In this document: piece after piece, positions 11,320 through 26,384 of the stretch | Layout: each line of letters opens with the position of its first letter | How positions within the stretch are numbered: the first letter of the stretch is position 1 | Origin: Podarcis cretensis | Lineage: Eukaryota | NCBI GenBank assembly: GCA_951804945.1 | Contig: OX638162.1 | Coordinates: 29,698,001 to 29,762,000 of the forward strand | Reading direction: 5' to 3' | DNA: 64,000 nucleotides | Notes under the pieces: model-generated | What the model was told of the DNA's origin: nothing | The model's database searches: none | Seen by the model: only the letters and a program-made list of their open reading frames with translations | Program-made: the position numbers and the translations under genes

Positions 11320-13901
11320 GGGTTGGTTTTTCAAGTTTGAGTGCATGCAATTAATTATTAAGATAGGAACTTCAATCTCAAATCTTGCTAACTTCCATAT
11401 CAATCAGTTACCTAGAAAAGCATTTGTGTGCTGGTTCTGATACAGTTGACAATATATTGCGATGGGTCAAACTGGGACAGTACACTCCAGCTCTAAAGCA
11501 TTTTCCACTTATTCCTTCACCTTCTGTGTCGTGGAGCTTACCTGAGGAAGCTTGGATCTCCCTGTACTCCCCCGCCCCCTCAACTCCTGTATTGGGTTTC
11601 ACATTGTGCAGGGAGGAAGTCCACTGTTGTGAAAGGGGAGAGGCGTTGTCTTTGCTGGTCCACAGCTGTGGCTGGTAGATCTGGCTTCAGATGGCATTCC
11701 TTTGCTGTGCGTGTTTCTAACACTGTATCACAGAGAGTTCAGGTCTGGGAAATAAAGCTCACATTGGAACACCCACAGGAAGTTAAAATGATGGTGTGCC
11801 TTGTAGGTCTGACCTGCTGCAGGTTAGTGCTGACACACCTGTCTGCCTTGAGAAGCATTGACAACAATGCTATGACTTAAATAGACAGCAGAGGGGTGGT
11901 TGTGTTGTGTGAACTTCATTCCCTCCCAGTCATTGTGTAGCATGCAGAGCAACTGAGCAAGGAAATCGCAGCCCTCAACAGACTAGCTTAGCAATGCTGT
12001 GTATGTCAGAAATTACATTTAAATGCTTTTGTAAACTTACATAGCCTTGTAGGCCAACTAATGATTTACTGTTTCCTTTTAAAAACAAATCCTCAGTTGT
12101 CTTTAAAGATACTGCCTTCCAAGTGTGTAATTCTTCTGAGTTATGATTTCCATTACTTGAGTTATGGACCCTCCAAGACCCCATCCCTGCTACTCCTGAA
12201 AACCCAATGCTTTTTTATTCTGGTGCTCTGACTCTAGCAATTCTTGGATGGAAGATGAGCCCTGCCAGCATTAACCCACCTGTGAGGAAGGTGACGCAGA
12301 ACCCTTCCAAAGTTGGCCAGTAGACCACAGTTTTCTTCCTATTGACCAACCAACACTTTGGTCCAGTTGCATTAAATCTGAAATGTTGAGAGGTTGTTGA
12401 AAAATATTTGAGCTGTTTTGGCTGCTTGAGGGTTTCAAGATTTATTTCATTCATTCTCTCTGTCTCTCTCTCTCTTTATGGCATGGGACCATTGAGGACC
12501 AGGCAAAGGGCCTCATCTCCTCACCAACACACATGCCCAGACAGACACTCTTGTTGTCTAGTTTGGAGGTTCAATGGAAAGCAACTTGTTCTCTGCCAGC
12601 TCCAAGGCTGCGTGTTTCTGACAAGCAGGTCCCTGTTTCTTTTGCCTCTGAATATTTTCTCATAAGAGAGAGCCCTTCTCCTAACCTGTAGGATGCTTTG
12701 TTTGTTAAAGCAGAAGCTTTCCTCTTAAATAACCTATTTATTTTTCATTGGATTGTGTGCGCTTTTTTTCAAACAAGGATTCTTACAAGTCGCTTCACCA
12801 TCCATTTGGCCAGATTTATTTTCTGCTAGGTTGAGAATCAAGTCTCTTTCCCTCCGCCTCCACGGGAAAGAGGGAGAATGTGAAAAAAAAGAAAAAAAGA
12901 CTTTTGCATTGTGGTGATTGGCACAGCCTGTGAATCAAGGGTCATTTTGTGTAGCTGTTTCTTTTCAAGCATTCTCTCTCTCTTTCTTTCTTTCTTTCTC
13001 TCTCTCTTCCCCCTTCCATGCACAATCTATTCAGGCTGGAAGCATTCTTTCTTTTCAGAGTCTTTTCTGCCTCTCTCTCTCTTTTCCCCCTCCTTTATTT
13101 TTCATCTCTTTTCATTCTGTTTCCCTCCACCACCCCCCTAGAGGCTCTTTTTTCCCCTTTCCTCATTCCTCTATTCAGTTCCCTTTTTTTTTTGGTTGCT
13201 TCTTTTAAAATAGCTTTTCTATTTTCAGAGAGGACAGGGAACATGTAGGAAGAGAAGTCGTTTCAGAAAGGAGGAACCTGAAAGTCTTTCTCCATTTATT
13301 TCAGCAAACGTTGTTTTTCAAGCAAGAGAACCAAGGGCGACAAAAAGAAACCCAACTTTATTTTGTTCCCACAAACAGCGCAGCCCCAAACACCCCCCAG
13401 AGTATTCATAAGTGGTCACATCTCCAGTAATATGCTAAAATACTGGCAGCTTTGCTTCTTTATTATGTTGCCCTGGGCATTTTGGTGCAGAGACTAGAAA
13501 CACAAGAGGCATGGCTGCTTTCCTGGATAGACCCCATTGATGCCCCTCTTTGCAACTTCAGACATCACCCATTTCTTTTAGCTCTGCACCAAGAGTTGTG
13601 GGGTGCAGGGCCCACTTGGATGCTGCCTTTAGAACAATTTGTCCTTCATGGTGAACCTTCAGCAGGGAGCTTAGGAGATCTCTGTGCTAATGCAGAGAAC
13701 AATTTTGTGGAAAGCAGCAGTGAAGACTTAAAGTTGTGTAATCTCAGGTTTGTAGATCTCTAGATGTGCATTGCTTAAAGCATTGACTAGCCCCCAATAG
13801 CCACGTTAATCAGAATTGCGTGGCGAGTTCCCGCCCCCACCAGGATAAATAAAGACACAAGACACCGTATGTAAGGTTAATTGGGCGAATTAGGCCACAA
13901 C

Positions 13902-13907
13902 TTTATT
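13902..13907 (-). terminator. Poly(A) signal of the retrotransposon
   Basis: AATAAA on minus, followed by a GT-rich element GTGTCTTGTGTCTTT (~13851-13865). Confidence 0.65.
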
Positions 13908-14243
13908 GAATTCAGGAATGAGAGGCATTGGCATAGGCATTGGTCCTAACGGCTATCCGGCTCCAGCCCATTTGCTGGAGACACGGGGAAGGGTTAACCT
14001 TATATCGGGGGAGACTCCCGCAAGGCACGTCGACTAGGAGCTCCCCCGGGTCACCGCTCTGGGGCGTGCCTTTGGCCCACACCTCCATAGGCTTCGGACA
14101 GGGCCACGCCCCCCGGGGTCCTTTAACGGACCACCCTTCGCTCGCTGGGGGGAGGTGATGGCGTTCCTCCCCCACACACATCGTCTTAACCCCTTCTTAC
14201 CAATGCCTACTGCCACACGAGCAAACGCTCGCCGCCAATACTC

Positions 14244-14813
14244 TCATGCCTGAAACCAATCCCTTATCCCCATAGCTATGTCCTCAAGCCATATATCATT
14301 TCCTGCATCAGACAGATGCACGCCATCAAACCAGTAGAGGGCCTCACAGTTGAAACGAATGCCCGGGTGTCGTATGACTTTTCCCCCCAGGGCTGCCACT
14401 CTACGTACCACCGCCCGATCCACGGCTTTCCTCGCCCTATTTATGGCCATCGGGCACCTGCAATCTCTCCAAACCCGCCTCTCCATCAAGGAGGCCCAAA
14501 TGATTGTGAGGTTTGGGTAAGCAGCCTTAAGCTCCTCCAAATCCCCGAGTATGTGCCACTGCAAATCAGCCGCCTTTCTATAGGCCAAATCGTTTTCACC
14601 CAATTGTAAAAGTAAAGCATCCGGGGGGCCCTCTCTCGCGACTCTGGTCTCGAATGCGGGCAACATCTCAGCCCAACGCATTCTCCTCCGTGAAACCCAG
14701 GATATCGTGATGCCATCAGGCAAGCCCAGTCGCGGCCCCAGACCGGAATTGATGGCGCGGACCCTGGCCCAATGCACGATGCTGTGCCCGATTATCCAGA
14801 CGTGCACCCCCAT
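14244..14813 (-). CDS. SGNH/GDSL-type hydrolase (esterase/lipase-like), 189 aa, element-encoded
   Basis: Block I IIGHSIV, block III LQLGENDL, block V DGVHLS; block II appears altered (SRRRMRW). Confidence 0.85.
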   Translation of the reverse strand: MGVHVWIIGHSIVHWARVRAINSGLGPRLGLPDGITISWVSRRRMRWAEMLPAFETRVAREGPPDALLLQLGENDLAYRKAADLQWHILGDLEELKAAYPNLTIIWASLMERRVWRDCRCPMAINRARKAVDRAVVRRVAALGGKVIRHPGIRFNCEALYWFDGVHLSDAGNDIWLEDIAMGIRDWFQA

Positions 14814-14870
14814 ATCTCCTGCAATAAATCAAAGAACAGGCCATGGTCAGTAAAATCCCCAGCTGGGATG

Positions 14871-15800
14871 TCATAAATTCTTTCTCAGGTAGCGCTTGTA
14901 TGCGTCCGATTTCCAGCGGCCTAGATCCTTGATCCTCTCGGCCGTAAGGCCCAGGTGCATTGCCGTGGTGGCCGCTCCAATCCTAAAGGAGTGTGCCGCG
15001 AAATCTGCTGGTGGGAGGCCACATGCTTTAAGTGTTAAGCGCATGACCCTGGTGAACTGGTGCCGCGTCAGGGGTACGCCGTCTGCATGGATCAATAAAG
15101 GCCCCGCCATGTTAGGTCTCATAAACAAGAAGCGCCTGGTGTCCTTCACTGGACACGGGCCTAGTTCCCCTGTTGCCAGTAGCCGGACCAGAGCACCCCT
15201 CCCGAACTGGTCTGTCTTGGAACTACGAATCCGCACGACCAAATCTTCACGTGAAAGTGTAATGTCACTCAACAGTAAGCCCCGGGAGGAGCCATGCTGA
15301 CCTTCCTCAAAAACCACCTCACCCACATGCATTGCCCCGAAAAATGCGATAGAGTATGCCGCTGAAAACAAGCGTGCCTCATACTTTGACCAACAGACCG
15401 TTCTCAACCTTTTATGGATTTGGAAAAGTATGTCAAAAGATATAGGCCTCCTCGCATCCCGGGCTGGGGGCTGCAGTCTACGCCAGCCTTCTAGGGTCTT
15501 TCGTATGACGAACTCAGCGCATGGATCTGACGAAAATAACGCTTTGCAAAAGAAAGAAATCGCTGTGGCCTGTAAGTTGAGGGTTTTTGGGGCACATCCC
15601 CGGCATTTCAAGTGCACTAGATAGGACAAGACCTCAGACCTGATGGGAGGGGCGTTGCTCCTGGCGGGGCTGGATTTTTCACGGAACTTTAAGAAATCCG
15701 ACCACGCCTTCCTATAAGACCTCAATGTGGAGGGCGCCAATGAGGCTAATACTCCCTGAATCACTTCTGGTTCCCAGGACTCTGGTCCCCAAGTCTCCAC
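14871..15800 (-). CDS. Tyrosine recombinase (lambda integrase family), ~309 aa; true start uncertain
   Basis: SLAPSTLRSY N-terminal region; FFGAM[H]VGE, SKTDQ, HSFRIGAAT, GRWKSDAYKRY motifs; frame open from ~15892; track start is GTG. Confidence 0.92.
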   Translation of the reverse strand: METWGPESWEPEVIQGVLASLAPSTLRSYRKAWSDFLKFREKSSPARSNAPPIRSEVLSYLVHLKCRGCAPKTLNLQATAISFFCKALFSSDPCAEFVIRKTLEGWRRLQPPARDARRPISFDILFQIHKRLRTVCWSKYEARLFSAAYSIAFFGAMHVGEVVFEEGQHGSSRGLLLSDITLSREDLVVRIRSSKTDQFGRGALVRLLATGELGPCPVKDTRRFLFMRPNMAGPLLIHADGVPLTRHQFTRVMRLTLKACGLPPADFAAHSFRIGAATTAMHLGLTAERIKDLGRWKSDAYKRYLRKNL

Positions 15801-17479
15801 AGCTGTTCCGGGAAGGGCTGAGGTAGTAACTGAGCATCCGGTGCTAACGAGCGGAAGCGGTCCATCTGAAAACGAGATAGGGCATCCGCGATGTCATTGT
15901 TAACACCAGGCACAAATTTAGCCGAGAAGTGGATATTAAGTTCTAAACAGCGGAGAACAAAGGAACGCAGAAGGGCACCAACTCTTGAGGAATGCGCGGC
16001 CTGCCTAGTAAGGACTGCTACTACCGCCTGATTGTCGGTGTGGAAGCAAACCCTATGGTTGCTAAAGACCTCTGACCATAGGTGGATTGCCACTACAATC
16101 GGGAAGAATTCTAGGAAGGTTAGATCTCTGGTAATGGGCCCTCCCCTCCAGGCTTCAGGCCAACGCTGAGCACACCATTGCCCCTTACAATAAACGCCAA
16201 ACCCGAGGGAGCCTGAAGCGTCCGAATGCACTTGAAAGTCCACCTGCAGTGACAAGTTCTCTTGCCATAGGGAAATACCGTTGTAGTTCTCGAGGAACTT
16301 CAACCAAACTTGTAAGTCAGATTTTACTTCCCTAGAAAGCCGAATCCTATGATGAGGGGAACGCAGGCCTGCCGACAGCTTCGCGAGGCGACCACAGAAA
16401 GGACGGCCAGGGGAAACCACGCGGCAAGCAAAATTTAGATGACCAAGAAGAGCTTGTATCTGCCTAAGTGTAACTTTTTTAAGGGGGAGGAGTTGCTGAA
16501 TGAGGTCACCAAGTGCCACCAGCTTCTCTCTGGGCAGTTTTGAGGTCTGCGCTACAGTGTCCAACTCGATGCCTAAGTAGACCATGGTTGTAGCTGGGCC
16601 CTCCGTTTTGTTGTTGGCTAGGGGAACTCCTAGCTCCCCTGCTAAAGATATGAAAGCTTTGAGAAGCTCTGCACACCCCTGCCTGCTATCAGCCACGAGG
16701 ATAAAGTCGTCCAGGTAATGCGACACACCCTCCGAGCCAGTTCTAAAGCGAAGGGCCCAGTCCAAGAAGGTACTGAATGCCTCAAAGGCTGCGCAGGCCA
16801 CTGAGCAACCCATGGGCATAGCTTTGTCCACAAAATAAGCCCCCTCAAATTTGAATCCGAGGCACCGGAAATCTTCCGGGTGCATTGGCAGAAGCCTAAA
16901 GGCCGACTCGATGTCACATTTTGCCAGCCACGCTCCCTTACCAAATTCGCGAATGACTTTGACCGCATGGTCAAAGGTGGCGTATTTCACTATACAGAGC
17001 TCCTGCGGTATCGCATCATTGACGGACCCACCTTTTGGATAGGAAAGGTTGTGAATCATGCGAAACTCGCCAGGCGCTTTCTTGGGGACTATGCCTAAAG
17101 GGGATACATGAAGGCCAACGATTGGCGGAGCTAGAAAGGGACCGGCTACCCTACCTGCTTTGATTTCTTTGCTAATTTTCTTCCGGGCCACCTCCGGCAT
17201 CTCCCTGACTGACTTCTGATTGGGGGGGTTGCCCGAATTGGGTGGAAACGCTACCGGGATTCTGAAACCAGTACTAAAACCCTCCCATAAGTACACTGCT
17301 GCTGTCCTATTGGGGTAGATGTCTAAGAGGTTTTTTAACGGGGCCAGCTTGATGGGGGAATAGGCCAATTCCAAATTAAGGTTACTGCCTGTTCCCTTGA
17401 GGTCCGAAAGAGGCTCCCTGGCCACCTCTGGGACCGTGATTGTAAGAGCCCCTTCCACCCCGAAAGGGCTGCCTCCCTT
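15761..17479 (-). CDS. Reverse transcriptase + RNase H (pol), probably expressed as a gag-pol fusion
   Basis: KCDIESAFR, MPMGCSVAC, YLDDF; RNase H SDAS, FLEFFPI, TDNQAVV, DIADALSR; frame opens just after TGA at 17482-17480. Confidence 0.95.
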   Translation of the reverse strand, partial: KGGSPFGVEGALTITVPEVAREPLSDLKGTGSNLNLELAYSPIKLAPLKNLLDIYPNRTAAVYLWEGFSTGFRIPVAFPPNSGNPPNQKSVREMPEVARKKISKEIKAGRVAGPFLAPPIVGLHVSPLGIVPKKAPGEFRMIHNLSYPKGGSVNDAIPQELCIVKYATFDHAVKVIREFGKGAWLAKCDIESAFRLLPMHPEDFRCLGFKFEGAYFVDKAMPMGCSVACAAFEAFSTFLDWALRFRTGSEGVSHYLDDFILVADSRQGCAELLKAFISLAGELGVPLANNKTEGPATTMVYLGIELDTVAQTSKLPREKLVALGDLIQQLLPLKKVTLRQIQALLGHLNFACRVVSPGRPFCGRLAKLSAGLRSPHHRIRLSREVKSDLQVWLKFLENYNGISLWQENLSLQVDFQVHSDASGSLGFGVYCKGQWCAQRWPEAWRGGPITRDLTFLEFFPIVVAIHLWSEVFSNHRVCFHTDNQAVVAVLTRQAAHSSRVGALLRSFVLRCLELNIHFSAKFVPGVNNDIADALSRFQMDRFRSLAPDAQLLPQPFPEQLWRLGDQSPGNQK

Positions 17480-18989
17480 TCATGCAGGCCGTAGATGGGT
17501 GACTACCAAAACATCTTTCACATTCGTGACTGTACTTACAGGCCGGCCTCACACAAACCCCTTTATTAAATTCCCAACATAGGCGCTTCTGCTTGGCGGC
17601 GGTCCTCCAAGATTTTGATGGATCCTGGTACTTTTTTTCCACGAAGGGGCCCACATGGTCCGACCAATAGTTTTGGTCCCTCAGGTCCCAGCGCGTGGAG
17701 GGTAGCAAAGAAGCATTTCTACGAAAATCCTCGTCGTAATTCAAAGCAGCAATATCACCCGCTAATTCCCGCGCCCTCCGAATATGGGCCAAGTATGCAA
17801 TCAAATGCATTGCCCGTTTAGGATAAGCAGCGCTGACCACACCCATGAACACCTGGAACCCATTGAGCCAATTGTCGAAGGTATGCTCGGCTCTTGGTGC
17901 TCTGTACCTGCGCTTCCCGTAACTGCGCCTCTTTTCTCCTTTCCCTGTCAGTTTTGCGGGGGGCAACAATCTGAATATGTCAATAAAATCCCCATTGAGG
18001 ATTTTGTCCCTTTTCCTTTGAGATAAGTGGTTGCCTACAATGAAATCTGAGGACAAGTGAGTGGAGGTTTTTACGTCGGGCACCAGGGAGCCATCCTTCC
18101 ATTCCAGTGTCCCATTGAAGGTCTTACGGTAGGAGTTGGCCCTCCTTTCATGCGCCCATGCGGGAAGACCCACGCAATCCTCCCCATGGCCCCAATACTC
18201 CTCCCTAGGAGCATCACTATCAGAATCGGATGAGGAAGAAGTACCTGAGTCCTCCTCGGATTCCGACCGCCTGCTCTTCTTGCTTTTCTTGGACGTGTGC
18301 TTCCTTTTTTCTTTCCTCTTCCCCCACGGGACCTCAGGGGGGGTCTGCTCCGGAATGCTACTTGCAATTACCGCCTGTCGATCGTGCACTTCCTCATCCG
18401 AAGTTGATTCCGACGCGCCCTCGGCTGGCGCCGTCTGCGGGGGCAGGATCTGAAAAAGACTAGGTACACCTGGGTCCTTTTTAGGGTTAGTAGCCTTAGA
18501 GCCCTGGGCGCTAGCCTTGCCCTTCGCGGCTCCCCTCTGGCCTCCTCTTGACTTGCCTGAGGAGGCCGACTGAGAGCTGGTGTTTTTCTTAAGCCGTCCT
18601 GCAGCCTTTTTTGCCGCAGTCAACACAGCCACCGTGGATGCAGAAGTGCCGGGAAGTACTACCTCCCTAAGTTGAGAGTCTTCGATGTAATCCTGGGAGA
18701 ACGCCATTGGTGCAGAAGGCGCTGATGGTCCTGCTGCCGTTGTCATTGGCGACACGATTACTGGTGCAACCGCTGTTGGCGCTGTCGTGATTGTCGTTGG
18801 AGCTGCTGCCCCTGGCGCGGGTGCCGCTTGGCCTGCGGACCTGCTTTGTTTATAAAACTCCTGAAAGGCAGTGAAAAACTGGGCCAAAGCCTGAGGGTTA
18901 CTAGGAATAAGAAATGGTTGAGACTCCTCCTGGTTCCCTTGGTTCCCCCCAGATACAGCGTCATTTACCTGATTACCCTGAGCCGACAT
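17382..18989 (-). CDS. Gag-like protein, 535 aa, with C-terminal Cys/His zinc-finger cluster
   Basis: ATG at 18989 (MSAQGNQ); low-complexity Ala/Ser/Lys N-terminal half; CWEFNKGVCVRPACKYSHECERCFGSHPSTAC; RG-rich tail. Confidence 0.85.
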   Translation of the reverse strand: MSAQGNQVNDAVSGGNQGNQEESQPFLIPSNPQALAQFFTAFQEFYKQSRSAGQAAPAPGAAAPTTITTAPTAVAPVIVSPMTTAAGPSAPSAPMAFSQDYIEDSQLREVVLPGTSASTVAVLTAAKKAAGRLKKNTSSQSASSGKSRGGQRGAAKGKASAQGSKATNPKKDPGVPSLFQILPPQTAPAEGASESTSDEEVHDRQAVIASSIPEQTPPEVPWGKRKEKRKHTSKKSKKSRRSESEEDSGTSSSSDSDSDAPREEYWGHGEDCVGLPAWAHERRANSYRKTFNGTLEWKDGSLVPDVKTSTHLSSDFIVGNHLSQRKRDKILNGDFIDIFRLLPPAKLTGKGEKRRSYGKRRYRAPRAEHTFDNWLNGFQVFMGVVSAAYPKRAMHLIAYLAHIRRARELAGDIAALNYDEDFRRNASLLPSTRWDLRDQNYWSDHVGPFVEKKYQDPSKSWRTAAKQKRLCWEFNKGVCVRPACKYSHECERCFGSHPSTACMKGRQPFRGGRGSYNHGPRGGQGASFGPQGNRQ

Positions 18990-19224
18990 ATCTTCAATCA
19001 ACGCCCTGGATTGCCCAATCGGAGGCAAGAAGCTTAGTTGTTATGTGTTAGCAACAAGCAGTGGTCTGTACTGTAGTTCAGTATTGACTGCACTGGACGG
19101 ACTTAGCACAAATTAAAATCACTGGTAAGCGACCCAACTGCCAGCCCCACTGGCTGTGTTAGCGTCAAGTAAGATATTAGCTCAGTACTGTCTGCACCGG
19201 TATTGCTCTAGCTGGTATAAAATT

Positions 19225-19350
19225 AATGGTTTCTTATTTTTATTTTATATTAATTTTTATATTAAATTATATTAATTTATTCTATTTTATTTTTTTATTT
19301 TTTTATTTTTTTATTTTATTTATTTATTTATTTTATTTATTTATCTATTC
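19225..19350. repeat. AT-only low-complexity tract, (TTTA)-like
   Basis: Direct reading. Confidence 0.85.
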
Positions 19351-19663
19351 ATATAACCTTATGCAATTAAACCAGCTGATCACTAAGTTGACCACTTAGC
19401 CAAATTAGGAAAATTAAGCTATACCCTTACAGCAGCGAGGCTAGACTGCCCGTGCCTATGTAATTAATTAGATGCCAGTTAAATCTCTTGCAAAGTAGAT
19501 TAGGTCTAGATAACCTTTAAAATTAGATTATATTGATTAGAGGCACACTTGAACTAATTATGCTTTACCCAAGGCAAGCACTTTAATTTAAGCGAAATCA
19601 GCAACGTAAAAGCACCAAAACTAGATCAAATTCAAAGAAATAAAATCTGAGTACAATGAAGCA

Positions 19664-19910
19664 AAGTAAAATAACAAGGAAAATGGATGAAATTAGGTTA
19701 AATCAAATTAATTTAAATCGAAGTAAAAATAAGGCCAATCGCAGTAAATTAAGGCCAATAACAGTAATACCAGCAAAGTAAAATAAAGGAAGTAAAATAA
19801 CAAGGAAAATGGATGAAATTAGGTTAAATCAAATTAATTAAATCGAAGTAAAAATAAGGCCAATCGCAGTAAGGCCAATAACAGTAATACCAGCAAAGTA
19901 AAATAAAGGA
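19664..19910. repeat. Tandem duplication of a ~120-126 bp unit in the element leader
   Basis: AAGTAAAATAACAAGGAAAATGGATGAAATTAGG starts at 19664 and again at 19790. Confidence 0.9.
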
Positions 19911-20533
19911 ATGAAGCAGTAAATCCCAGAAATGCCAGCAAATAAAATCAAGTAATAAGGCAGCAAAGGAGTGACGACTGAATTGCCTGCGCAGCACCCA
20001 CTGCAAAGGATTGAATGCTAGTTGCTGCTCGGCCAGAAATAAATTGCCCCTTAAATCACCTTTCAAATTTACTAAAGAACCAAGTTAAGATTTATTTAAA
20101 TGATAAGAACAATTGTGAGGCAATTGCCAAACACACACACTCCCACAGGTGACTGCCTATACTAAGATGGCGGCCACTACGGAAGCAACGTGCTCCAGCA
20201 AAATGGTGCCGGGACCAGCTGGTCGCTAGGCAATGGTGCCGACCGCTGTTGAACAGATCAATCCGGCCCTAAGAAAGCAAGCGTTGTAATCAAATGCCAA
20301 CAAAACGAATGAGTGTAGCACGAAATTAGACGTTGCAGAAAGTTAGAAGTTAAACCCACTTTCCTAGTACCCTCCTGAATTAGCCAAAGCAAGGATAAAG
20401 ACGCAATAAAGACTTAGTTCCCACGTGGCTTGCCTCTCTTAAAATGGCTGCCGCCGCAAGGCCACGTGGTTAATCAAAATGGCGGCTGCAAGCTACCCGT
20501 TGCCTAGCGACGCCGCACAATTTCCCAGTTCAG

Positions 20534-20596
20534 GGCTATCAGACAAATACTATCAGGCACTGCAGGCTATCAGACAAATACTATCAGACAAATACT
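20534..20596. repeat. Short repeat CTATCAGACAAATA x3
   Basis: Direct reading. Confidence 0.85.
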
Positions 20597-21224
20597 AGCC
20601 CCGATTCAGGGCACGCCAAGCTGCAAAGTAATGAGTAAAGGCTAGCGCTGCACTTCGAAACGGCTCCTAAGCCGTAGTGGCACAAGCGGACCACTCGACC
20701 GGCGAGTTCCCCCCCCAAAACCAATACGTTACCGCTGCTGCCTTCGGGTTCACTGGAGATCACCCGTGCGGCCGGAGAGAGGGGAGGAAGATGCCGGAGG
20801 GTGGCTGCGCGGACGGTAACCAGCTGGCTGGCGGCTGGCGGGCTCCCGCAGTTACGAGGTGACCGCAAAGGATAGAGTAATTCACCCGAAGAAGTCGAAG
20901 CGCTGAAGCGGTTCCTGCAGGATGAATGAGGCAATGGCAGCCGCAAGGAGAAGGTGCTCTGGCCGCTGCGAACCAGCCTTTATTCTTAGGCTAACACCGC
21001 CAGCTGTGCAGCGGAGCGGCACGAAGGAGGCAGCCGAGGTTCCTTTTCGCCGGCGAAAGAGCAGGTCGGGAAATCCTTGCAGCGGGAGTGGAGCAGTGGG
21101 AGAAACAGTAACCAAAGCCTGTAAAGGAAAACTAGAAACCGCGTAATTGAACCAAGCACAGAAACCTGCAACAAAGTATACGAACCTCCAGGAAGACCTC
21201 CAAAACGTGGGGGCGAGCCGGCGA

Positions 21225-21425
21225 AAAGAGGGCGAGCCCCCTCCGCGCTGGCCCTAAATAGGGCAAGCCACGCCCCCCAGCCGACCAGCTGATTGGCTAG
21301 CTGGGGGGGGGCAGGCCCCGACGGGGAATCCCCTGCTCTCGCGGGGGCTGGTGCCAGCCCCCGCTCACGTGGGGTGGGCGTGAGGCCCGCAACCCCACCT
21401 CCTGGGGCAGGCCCGGAAGTGGCTT
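21225..21425 (-). promoter_or_regulatory. Putative Pol II promoter of the retrotransposon
   Basis: On minus: TATTTA (21260-21255) and CCAAT (21296-21292); also GC boxes, E-box CACGTG (~21366) and ETS CCGGAAGT (21413-21420). Confidence 0.55.
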
Positions 21426-24400: not shown

Positions 24401-24529
24401 TGCCATGATTTTGGAGCTGCCACCTAGGGCTCTCAGCCCACAGCCCTCTGCTTGGCCAACAGGGTAATGGCTTCTCTTTCTCCCCTTTGTTCCTGCAGAC
24501 AACAGAAGCTGTGCTTGATGGTATGAGCC

Positions 24530-25954
24530 ATGGACCGCTTTGCCCACTCTGGAACACAGACAGATGCCGTGGTGGTGCTGTCTCTGGCCCAAGCAGCCGT
24601 CCTGGGCTTGGTGACTGAGAACGAGTTTTTTGGTGCCACCGTCAGCCCCGGAGGTTTCTTCTCCAGCTTCGCAGGCAGGCTCGACGGCATGTCCATGGTT
24701 GAGTTGAAGCAGCCGGAAAGCCATTGCCCTCTGGAGAATGAAGGCCAAGGTCACATCGAGCCAGCGGAGGAGGATGAAGCAGCAGAGGCTTCCTTCGGGA
24801 AACATGCCCGGAGGAGGAAGCGCCCGCCTGTGAGGCTGGTGCCAAAAGTGAAGCCTGAGAAGGGGGAGTGGGGGCAGGAAGACGGCGCTTACGAAGCATC
24901 AGTAGCAAGTGAGGGCAAGGAGGAGCAGATGGGCAACCACCCTGTGAGCCTGGAGGAGTCCCCCTGTGAGCAGACAGTGCAGAGCAGCGCTACCAAGATG
25001 ATAGATCTCAGCACATTCAACAGGAAGCCTCGACGCCTGCGGCACCTGCGGCAGCAAGCTCCAGAAGAGCTGTCCCTGGGCGGGTATGAGGAGAGGCTCC
25101 CAAGCACCCCACAAGCCAGCCTGGACAGCACTCCGGGGAGTGCAGAGGTCTTCTCCAGTGACTGTGGCTTCCAGGCTGGTGCTCCTCCTCCCTTGATCAA
25201 TCTGGAGCATCCTGTACCACACTCTCCTCCGGGGCAGGGCAAGAGCGAGCTGGGCTTTGTGTGGCAGGAGCCCCTGGACTTTGAGGCGGAGGCCCACGGC
25301 GAGCACAGCAAGAAGGTTCAGCTGGACCGCCTGGACATCAATGTCCAGATAGACGACTCCTACCTGGTGGAGAAGCGTTGGCNNNNNNNNNNNNNNNNNN
25401 NNNNNNNNNNNNNNNNNNNNNNNNNNNNNNNNNNNNNNNNNNNNNNNNNNNNNNNNNNNNNNNNNNNNNNNNNNNNNNNNNNNNNNNNNNNNNNNNNNNN
25501 NNNNNNNNNNNNNNNNNNNNNNCTCACCCACCAGGGCACGCGGCCCCACAAGTGCCAGGTGTGCCACAAGGCCTTCACCCAGACCAGCCACCTCAAGCGC
25601 CACATGCTGCTGCACTCCGACATCAAGCCCTACAGCTGCCGCTTCTGTGGCCGCGGCTTCGCCTACCCCAGCGAGCTGAAGGCCCACGAGGGCAAGCATG
25701 AGAGCGGGCGCTGCCACGTCTGCGTGGAGTGTGGCCTGGACTTCTCCACCCTCACCCAGCTCAAGCGCCACCTGGCCACCCACCAGGGGCCCACCCTCTA
25801 CCCCTGCCCAGAGTGCAACAAATCCTTCCATTACCGCAGCCAGCTGCAGAACCACATGCTCAAGCACCAGAACGTGCGGCCCTTCGTCTGCACCGAGTGT
25901 GGCATGGAGTTCAGCCAGATCCATCACCTTAAGCAGCACTCGCTGACCCACAAG
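24530..25954 (+). CDS. ZNF710: ZNF710 coding exon 1 (C2H2 zinc fingers; contains a 140-N gap)
   Basis: Acceptor TTCCTGCAG ending 24498; MDRFAHSGTQTDAVVVLSLAQAAVLGLV; LDRLDINVQIDDSYLVE; C2H2 fingers; donor AAG|GTAGGC. Confidence 0.95.
25383..25522. other. Assembly gap (140 N) inside the ZNF710 CDS
   Basis: N run. Confidence 1.
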
Positions 25955-26384
25955 GTAGGCCAGGCAGCAGAGCACCAGCTTGAAGGGCGGGGGGGGGGTG
26001 TTGGGTAACCGAAGCCTTTTCCCATCCGTGGCTCTAAGGGCTTTTATAGAGGAGTGTGTGTGTGTCTACCTGCAGTGCCCTGAAGGGGTACCCAAAGGGC
26101 TTCACCTTAGCTGGCTTGCTCTTTTTGTTGTCCTTGGTCACCACAGACCTGGATTCTGAAAAAAGAGGCCTTGCCACAATTTGGGTTAAAACAGCTTCCA
26201 TAGGAGGGAGGGAAGGAGTGGGGATCCAAAATGCCCTGGTCTCTTCCCCCTTGCTCTGAAATCCCCCAAACACTACTGAGCATGAAATCACCATGGTTAG
26301 CCCTGTCCTCCTTGGCAAAGGTGGGATTGGGTGGTACCTCTTGGCTGCAATGAAGCCTTGTTACCTGCTTGCTGTTGTCTTCAG

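Follow-up and report, generated by a model that had tools for sequence, protein, structure and literature searches.

The question raised by this locus is how a lizard retrotransposon expresses an SGNH hydrolase that follows the tyrosine recombinase (YR) gene after a short gap. The element lies on the minus strand of a 64-kb stretch of the Podarcis cretensis genome (64,000 nucleotides, contig OX638162.1, positions 29,698,001 to 29,762,000), hereafter called the window, and all positions given are those within the window. YR retrotransposons have overlapping ORFs which often lack usable start codons, and the role of their hydrolase is unproven. Here the gap between the YR and SGNH ORFs is 57 nt (14870-14814, minus strand), with an ATG at 14813. 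The YR itself needs an unusual route of expression as well, since there is no in-frame ATG until 15332, at the first catalytic box.

By its sequence, the element is a Ngaro-like YR retrotransposon with the ORF order gag-like, reverse transcriptase/RNase H (RT/RH), YR and SGNH (Table 1). The gag-like, RT/RH and YR ORFs are all present, the RT overlaps the YR, and the SGNH domain comes after the YR. No methyltransferase domain is present: RVT_1 is the sole Pfam domain in the RT ORF, which ends approximately 35 residues past the RNase H motif, while the gag-like ORF gave no Pfam match. The best solved structure for the SGNH family profile was the esterase chain of ZfL2-1 ORF1p (4c1b_A, E 2.3e-11). 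Neither split direct repeats (A1 ... B1 A2 B2) nor an inverted terminal repeat was found in the window copy, where the 3' end matches sequence near the 5' region over at most 16 nt, and the class is therefore given as 'Ngaro-like' rather than as proven membership. Excerpts of PMC9210276 describe some copies and one consensus without split direct repeats, and their absence here may be a loss in the window copy. The closest named homologs came from lacertid lizards and the element family was multi-copy in two genomic read runs, while the viral contigs searched contained no SGNH or RT relatives. In both genomic runs the contig depth of the 3' segment at 13885-14254 was approximately 50-100x that of the element body. 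The segment also forms a long hairpin when folded (a fold taken without a shuffle control), and may exist as a short, abundant solo repeat or non-autonomous element. The window also contains a tandem duplication of 126 bp at 19664-19911, and an exon of a C2H2 zinc-finger gene with an N gap at 24527-26008 (plus strand), with the element on the other strand and upstream of the exon. The N-terminus encoded by the exon appears similar to that of ZNF710.

Table 1. Positions of the element's features and candidate splice signals within the window.
Feature	Position	Strand	Basis or remark
3' terminal region, long fold-back, AATAAA at 13907	13815..14243	-	element end approximate
SGNH hydrolase exon	14244..14818	-	Pfam Lipase_GDSL_2, E 2.9e-06, below curated cut-off
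Acceptor GCAG, phase 1 for SGNH	14819..14822	-	same register in sister subfamily and gene models
Polypyrimidine tract, 14/18 pyrimidines	14823..14840	-	sequence
Branch-point motif TACTGAC	14846..14852	-	sequence; branch A at 14847
Tyrosine recombinase ORF	14871..15893	-	first in-frame ATG only at 15332
Candidate second phase-1 acceptor TTTTCAG/AT, opening the YR frame at 15865	15866..15900	-	inside RNase H motif ADALSRFQ; gene models have D at the junction
RT/RNase H ORF, +1 frame relative to gag	15761..17479	-	Pfam RVT_1, E 7.4e-14
Full gag-like ORF, 535 aa, C-terminal CCCH-type finger	17382..18989	-	'gag-like' by position; proposed product of unspliced RNA
Putative shared donor CAG/GTACTT, in phase 1 following gag codon 248; exon ends at 18245	18239..18247	-	matched to junctions of P0181, P0176/P0030, P0031
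Gag N-terminal half, K/R-rich then S/D/E-rich tract at end	18245..18989	-	coding part of the proposed shared upstream exon
Promoter-like motifs (CCAAT, GC box, TATA-like) close to presumed 5' end	21254..21296	-	read by eye

The gap ahead of the SGNH ORF contains all the features of a U2-type 3' splice site: a branch motif, a pyrimidine tract, a YAG and an AG-free interval, with no further AG from 14864 to 14820 on the minus strand. The SGNH exon would start at 14818, 20 nt ahead of a conserved Trp codon. The sequence-only reading had placed TACTGAC at 14852-14846, followed by GCAG, an exon start at 14818 and an ATG at 14813 within a 57-nt gap, and every one of these coordinates was correct; it had estimated the distance from the branch A to the AG at about 27 nt, and from the A at 14847 to the A of the acceptor AG we measured 27 nt. 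A first site rule, requiring at least 15/18 pyrimidines, failed to pick up the 14818 site, and the tract is thus good rather than extreme. The second rule (at least 14/18 pyrimidines, a branch motif and the AG-free interval) was home-made and loosened post hoc to fit the site. Under this fitted rule there were 19 sites with YTRAY, three with CTRAC and one with TACTRAC on both strands of the 64-kb window, the last being the 14818 acceptor itself, and among 5000 dinucleotide shuffles of the gap there were matches in 21 (YTRAY), 6 (CTRAC) and 0 (TACTRAC). By this post hoc rule the acceptor motif is nonetheless clearly above chance level, and is unlikely to be a coincidence.

Conservation of the site across family members had been proposed as a check on its function. 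We compared the region 13700-19220 in two genomic runs and two presumed RNA runs. Position 14825 is an A in the window copy and a pyrimidine in most genomic copies, which therefore have a stronger tract, while some genomic copies carry one-base indels at 14852 and 14830, and hence the gap between YR and SGNH is not kept in frame. A 52-codon frame starting at 14874 was considered as a gene and ruled out, as copies carry indels within this frame. A sister subfamily (three contigs from run X1) diverges above 14800, and has a T-rich tract and CAG/G 20 nt before the Trp codon; its exon letters differ from those of the window copy, and there is no ATG. A scan of metagenomes gave 51 candidates and seven loci, of which six were distinct at the acceptor (L005 was dropped as a duplicate of L004). 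These distant loci show 27-39% identity and a YR upstream in 5/6, and the nearest YAG was within 21 nt and in phase 1 in 5/6 (P ~2.6e-4 versus shuffles). Position and phase of the acceptor are therefore kept in the sister subfamily and in most distant loci, but this does not extend to L007, which lacks such a site, or to the composition of the distant tracts, which are AT-rich more than pyrimidine-rich (8-14 of 19 pyrimidines). None of the 15 joints listed, from a total of 41 in the two genomic runs, was located at 14818, and the two presumed RNA runs each covered 2/30 bins over 13700-19220, none of these at the acceptor, so that their blank result counts neither for nor against splicing.

The identity of the upstream exon is suggested by the gene models of relatives. 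The comparison set for SGNH consisted of 32 proteins with at least 43% identity; two were off the motif pattern, leaving 30 rows, and removal of three with fewer than seven upstream residues left 27 close homologs. When the donor ends in G, a phase-1 junction needs a codon starting with G, and accordingly the residue at the junction position is expected to be G, A, V, D or E; this was the case in 20/27 close homologs (Gly in 15; four rows represent one locus), while 7/27 had a different residue. Just before this junction, a tract rich in K/R/H and then one rich in S/D/E were found by script in 6/30 rows and by eye in three gecko models, and the species with such models are Podarcis muralis, P. 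lilfordi, Zootoca vivipara, Lacerta agilis, Paroedura picta and Sphaerodactylus townsendi. In 24/30 SGNH rows this Gag tail was absent by the cut-offs of the script. The alignment of P0031 to the window Gag starts at residue 1 (E 2.5e-06) and the tract in the window Gag ends at codon 248, and hence the tract before the SGNH junction corresponds to mid-Gag. The X1 and X3 isoforms of P. muralis LOC114602446 are distinguished by a stretch of 22 residues, the last of which is the SGNH junction Gly. The donor at 18245 is mediocre, ranking only 16 on a donor frequency matrix, and because of this rank its identity rests on homology. All junction evidence comes from predicted gene models in which RNA support is not visible, and models of one pipeline are not independent; in NCBI practice, several isoforms at one locus usually reflect transcript evidence. 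The gene models are mixed, with read-through at intron ends, starts inside a domain, RT-YR joins and host exon-SGNH joins, and YR-SGNH joins were present in P0016, P0006, P0028 and P0045. Separately, a zinc finger 638-like model from Zootoca and a similar Podarcis protein (P0017, P0018) end in the SGNH exon at the junction Gly, making host-gene co-option of the element's esterase in lacertids possible. Five large unnamed proteins (P0025, P0026, P0027, P0029 and P0046) contain two to six SGNH domains of this element's family, and are possibly domesticated tandem esterases.

The same Gag tract is found ahead of the recombinase in some gene models. A TTT CAG matching the second acceptor (Table 1) was present in both distant loci in which the RNase H motif was found, although with the RNase H motif conserved, this acceptor sequence could be explained by protein constraint. 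Among 22 YR matches with at least 40% identity, the basic Gag tail was present in eight, six of which have D at the junction position of the window, and was absent by the script cut-offs in the other 14. P0181 from Podarcis raffonei, with 55% identity to the window Gag over 228 residues, joins the YR directly after the tract matching gag codon 248. In Zootoca LOC118082278, isoforms X1 (YR) and X2 (SGNH) have 207 identical residues, and then continue with either D-G-P-L-P (YR) or SGNH.

We consider it likely that the site at 14818 is a functional 3' splice site, and that a shared mid-gag donor is alternatively spliced to YR or SGNH, with both expressed as fusions to half of Gag. Joining the phase-1 donor at 18245 to the acceptor at 15865 would remove an intron of 2379 nt and give GagN-YR of 579 aa, while joining it to the acceptor at 14818 would remove 3426 nt and give GagN-SGNH of 439 aa; the unspliced RNA would provide both full Gag (535 aa) and the genome. 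Both spliced products would drop the C-terminal finger of Gag and retain the basic tract, which probably brings the enzymes to the element RNA or particle, and by analogy with the ZfL2-1 esterase GagN-SGNH may tie the element RNA or particle to membranes. For the window copy the motif, the phases and the ORF layout are established, and comparison adds the conserved position and the junctions in public gene models; it is from this conservation and these predicted models that we infer splicing itself and the donor of the window copy; all functions of the products are likewise inferred. For the RT, no convincing phase-1 acceptor was found ahead of its ORF in the window copy. The gag/RT overlap contains CCC TTT CGG in the gag frame at 17460-17468 (minus strand), with RT in the +1 frame. 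We take this sequence at 17468 to resemble a +1 frameshift motif; L005, the single locus that covers the end of gag, showed no match to it there.

The sequence-only reading had proposed that the hydrolase is made from a spliced subgenomic message, either from its own ATG or as a phase-1 fusion. The first of these options, in which a short or non-coding 5' leader is spliced to a real acceptor and translation of SGNH begins from the ATG at 14813 in the manner of many env genes, is in our view quite unlikely. While the in-frame ATG is only 5 nt inside the exon, no Met was found within seven residues before the conserved Trp in any of the 27 close homologs, so that this ATG looks incidental and probably is; the sister subfamily has none either, and in 4/6 distant loci there is no Met after the last in-frame stop. 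A conserved own ATG after the acceptor, which would mark an env-like spliced ORF, was thus not found. Three short homologs do start with Met, at -3, -4 and -6, but at these positions V, A or L is found in relatives, and the Met residues may represent alternative start codons called under a bacterial code. The best-scoring donor of the element, CAG/GTAAAT at 18969 (18963-18971, minus strand; gag codon 7, phase 0), would fit a short leader, but gives a 15-codon frame extending past the SGNH ATG. There are acceptor-like sites at 20374, 20268 and 19646 in the long AT-rich 5' region (19040-21250, minus strand), and together with the codon-7 donor these suggest further introns in the leader. Of the two options it is the phase-1 fusion that is supported, with donor and acceptor both in phase 1 and the Gag tail joined to SGNH in gene models. 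The broader proposal of a spliced message has good support from positional conservation and from the gene models of relatives, although these are predicted models and not reads.

Heterogeneous gene models, and host-like N-termini joined to SGNH at the same junction (P0017, P0018), would also be seen if the main users of the site were host genes or transcripts reading through, or if the junctions were annotation artefacts, without the element relying on the site. We judge this very unlikely, as capture by host genes depends on the presence of the site, but would neither preserve its position and phase in elements that share 27-64% identity nor put the donor at one and the same Gag spot for two different acceptors. 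The remaining explanation does away with splicing, with SGNH expressed by stop read-through, frameshifting or reinitiation after YR and the motif present by chance. YR and SGNH are indeed in the same frame with a gap that is a multiple of three, but read-through would need to cross two further in-frame TGA codons besides the YR stop, and copies have one-base indels within the gap. An ATG at 14874 does overlap the YR stop, but both this ATG and that at 14844 (the latter in a strong context) are out of frame and precede 14813. With the chance rate of the motif also below 0.5% for the gap under the fitted rule, expression without splicing appears extremely unlikely, and alternative splicing from a shared mid-gag donor is the reading we retain.

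With regard to the state of the window copy, the first catalytic Arg position of YR (15327-15329, minus strand) has His in the window copy and Arg in 71/74 matched homologs. In SGNH, residues S11, N74, D163 and H166 agree with 29-31 of 31 homologs, while block II (14682-14684, minus strand) has Arg in the window copy and Gly in 28/31 homologs. Because it differs from its relatives at these two catalytic positions in YR and SGNH, the window copy may be partly defective or inactive although its ORFs are open, even if the scheme holds for the family.

If the proposed splicing takes place, the actual protein products would be GagN-YR and GagN-SGNH, which would explain how genes lacking a start codon are expressed, and would provide a switch, under host control, from genome to enzyme messages and back, as well as a structural parallel to the esterases of LINE ORF1p. 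The exact junctions, 18245-14818 and 18245-15865, are directly testable in lizard RNA-seq. We lean slightly towards a wider generalisation: that animal Ngaro retrotransposons generally express their recombinase and hydrolase as spliced GagN fusions from one donor, with the host spliceosome determining how much genome, integrating enzyme and membrane-targeting esterase is made relative to one another, that for twenty years these proteins have wrongly been described as free ORFs, and that the acceptor allows host genes to capture the esterase as a last exon.

Comparison with known systems places the element close to DIRS-53_XT and DIRS-54_XT of Xenopus, Ngaro-like elements which in the excerpts of PMC9210276 have the same order of gag-like, RT/RH, YR and SGNH and the same overlap of RT and YR. 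In contrast, all ORFs of these two elements overlap, whereas the window element has the 57-nt gap before SGNH and no split direct repeats in the window copy. The hydrolase of Ngaro-like elements is treated there as a separate ORF with an unproven function, and there were no matches to splicing or introns in the searched text of PMC9210276. Spliced expression of Ngaro or DIRS elements was also not found in titles and abstract openings, although the 2004 paper by Goodwin and Poulter, the 2015 one by Poulter and Butler, Repbase entries and supplements may mention it, and it was likewise absent from the searched text of PMC9210276, PMC7192593, PMC3783388, PMC6681497, PMC4157794, PMC8547959 and PMC4495291; the last of these deduces that an acceptor precedes a co-opted DIRS gag in the part covered, which is a different matter. 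The window element is of a known kind, with a mode of expression that is apparently undescribed.

The sequence-only reading had likened the hydrolase to retroviral env, and this analogy is partial: it would hold for a spliced 3' ORF, but not for what is upstream, where the first exon would carry approximately 248 Gag codons, and the same donor would also serve the acceptor of the integrating enzyme, a point absent from the sequence-only reading. Retroviral integrase is part of Pol. The env/ORF3 genes of retroviruses and LTR retrotransposons, among them the GDSL ORF3 of bdelloid rotifers, resemble the proposed arrangement as 3' ORFs reached by removal of the pol region from the genomic RNA, and according to excerpts of PMC5408684 spliced messages are the typical source of ORF3 expression. 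For the proposed GagN-SGNH protein a close parallel is ORF1p of the CR1/L2 LINE ZfL2-1 (PDB 4c1b), which in the portions of PMC3905857 covered has a C-terminal SGNH esterase starting at residue 136 and preceded closely by an arginine-rich motif at residues 98-114; the esterase binds phospholipids. While ZfL2-1 ORF1p is a single unspliced ORF with a coiled coil, the fusion in the window element is proposed to arise via splicing from half of Gag.
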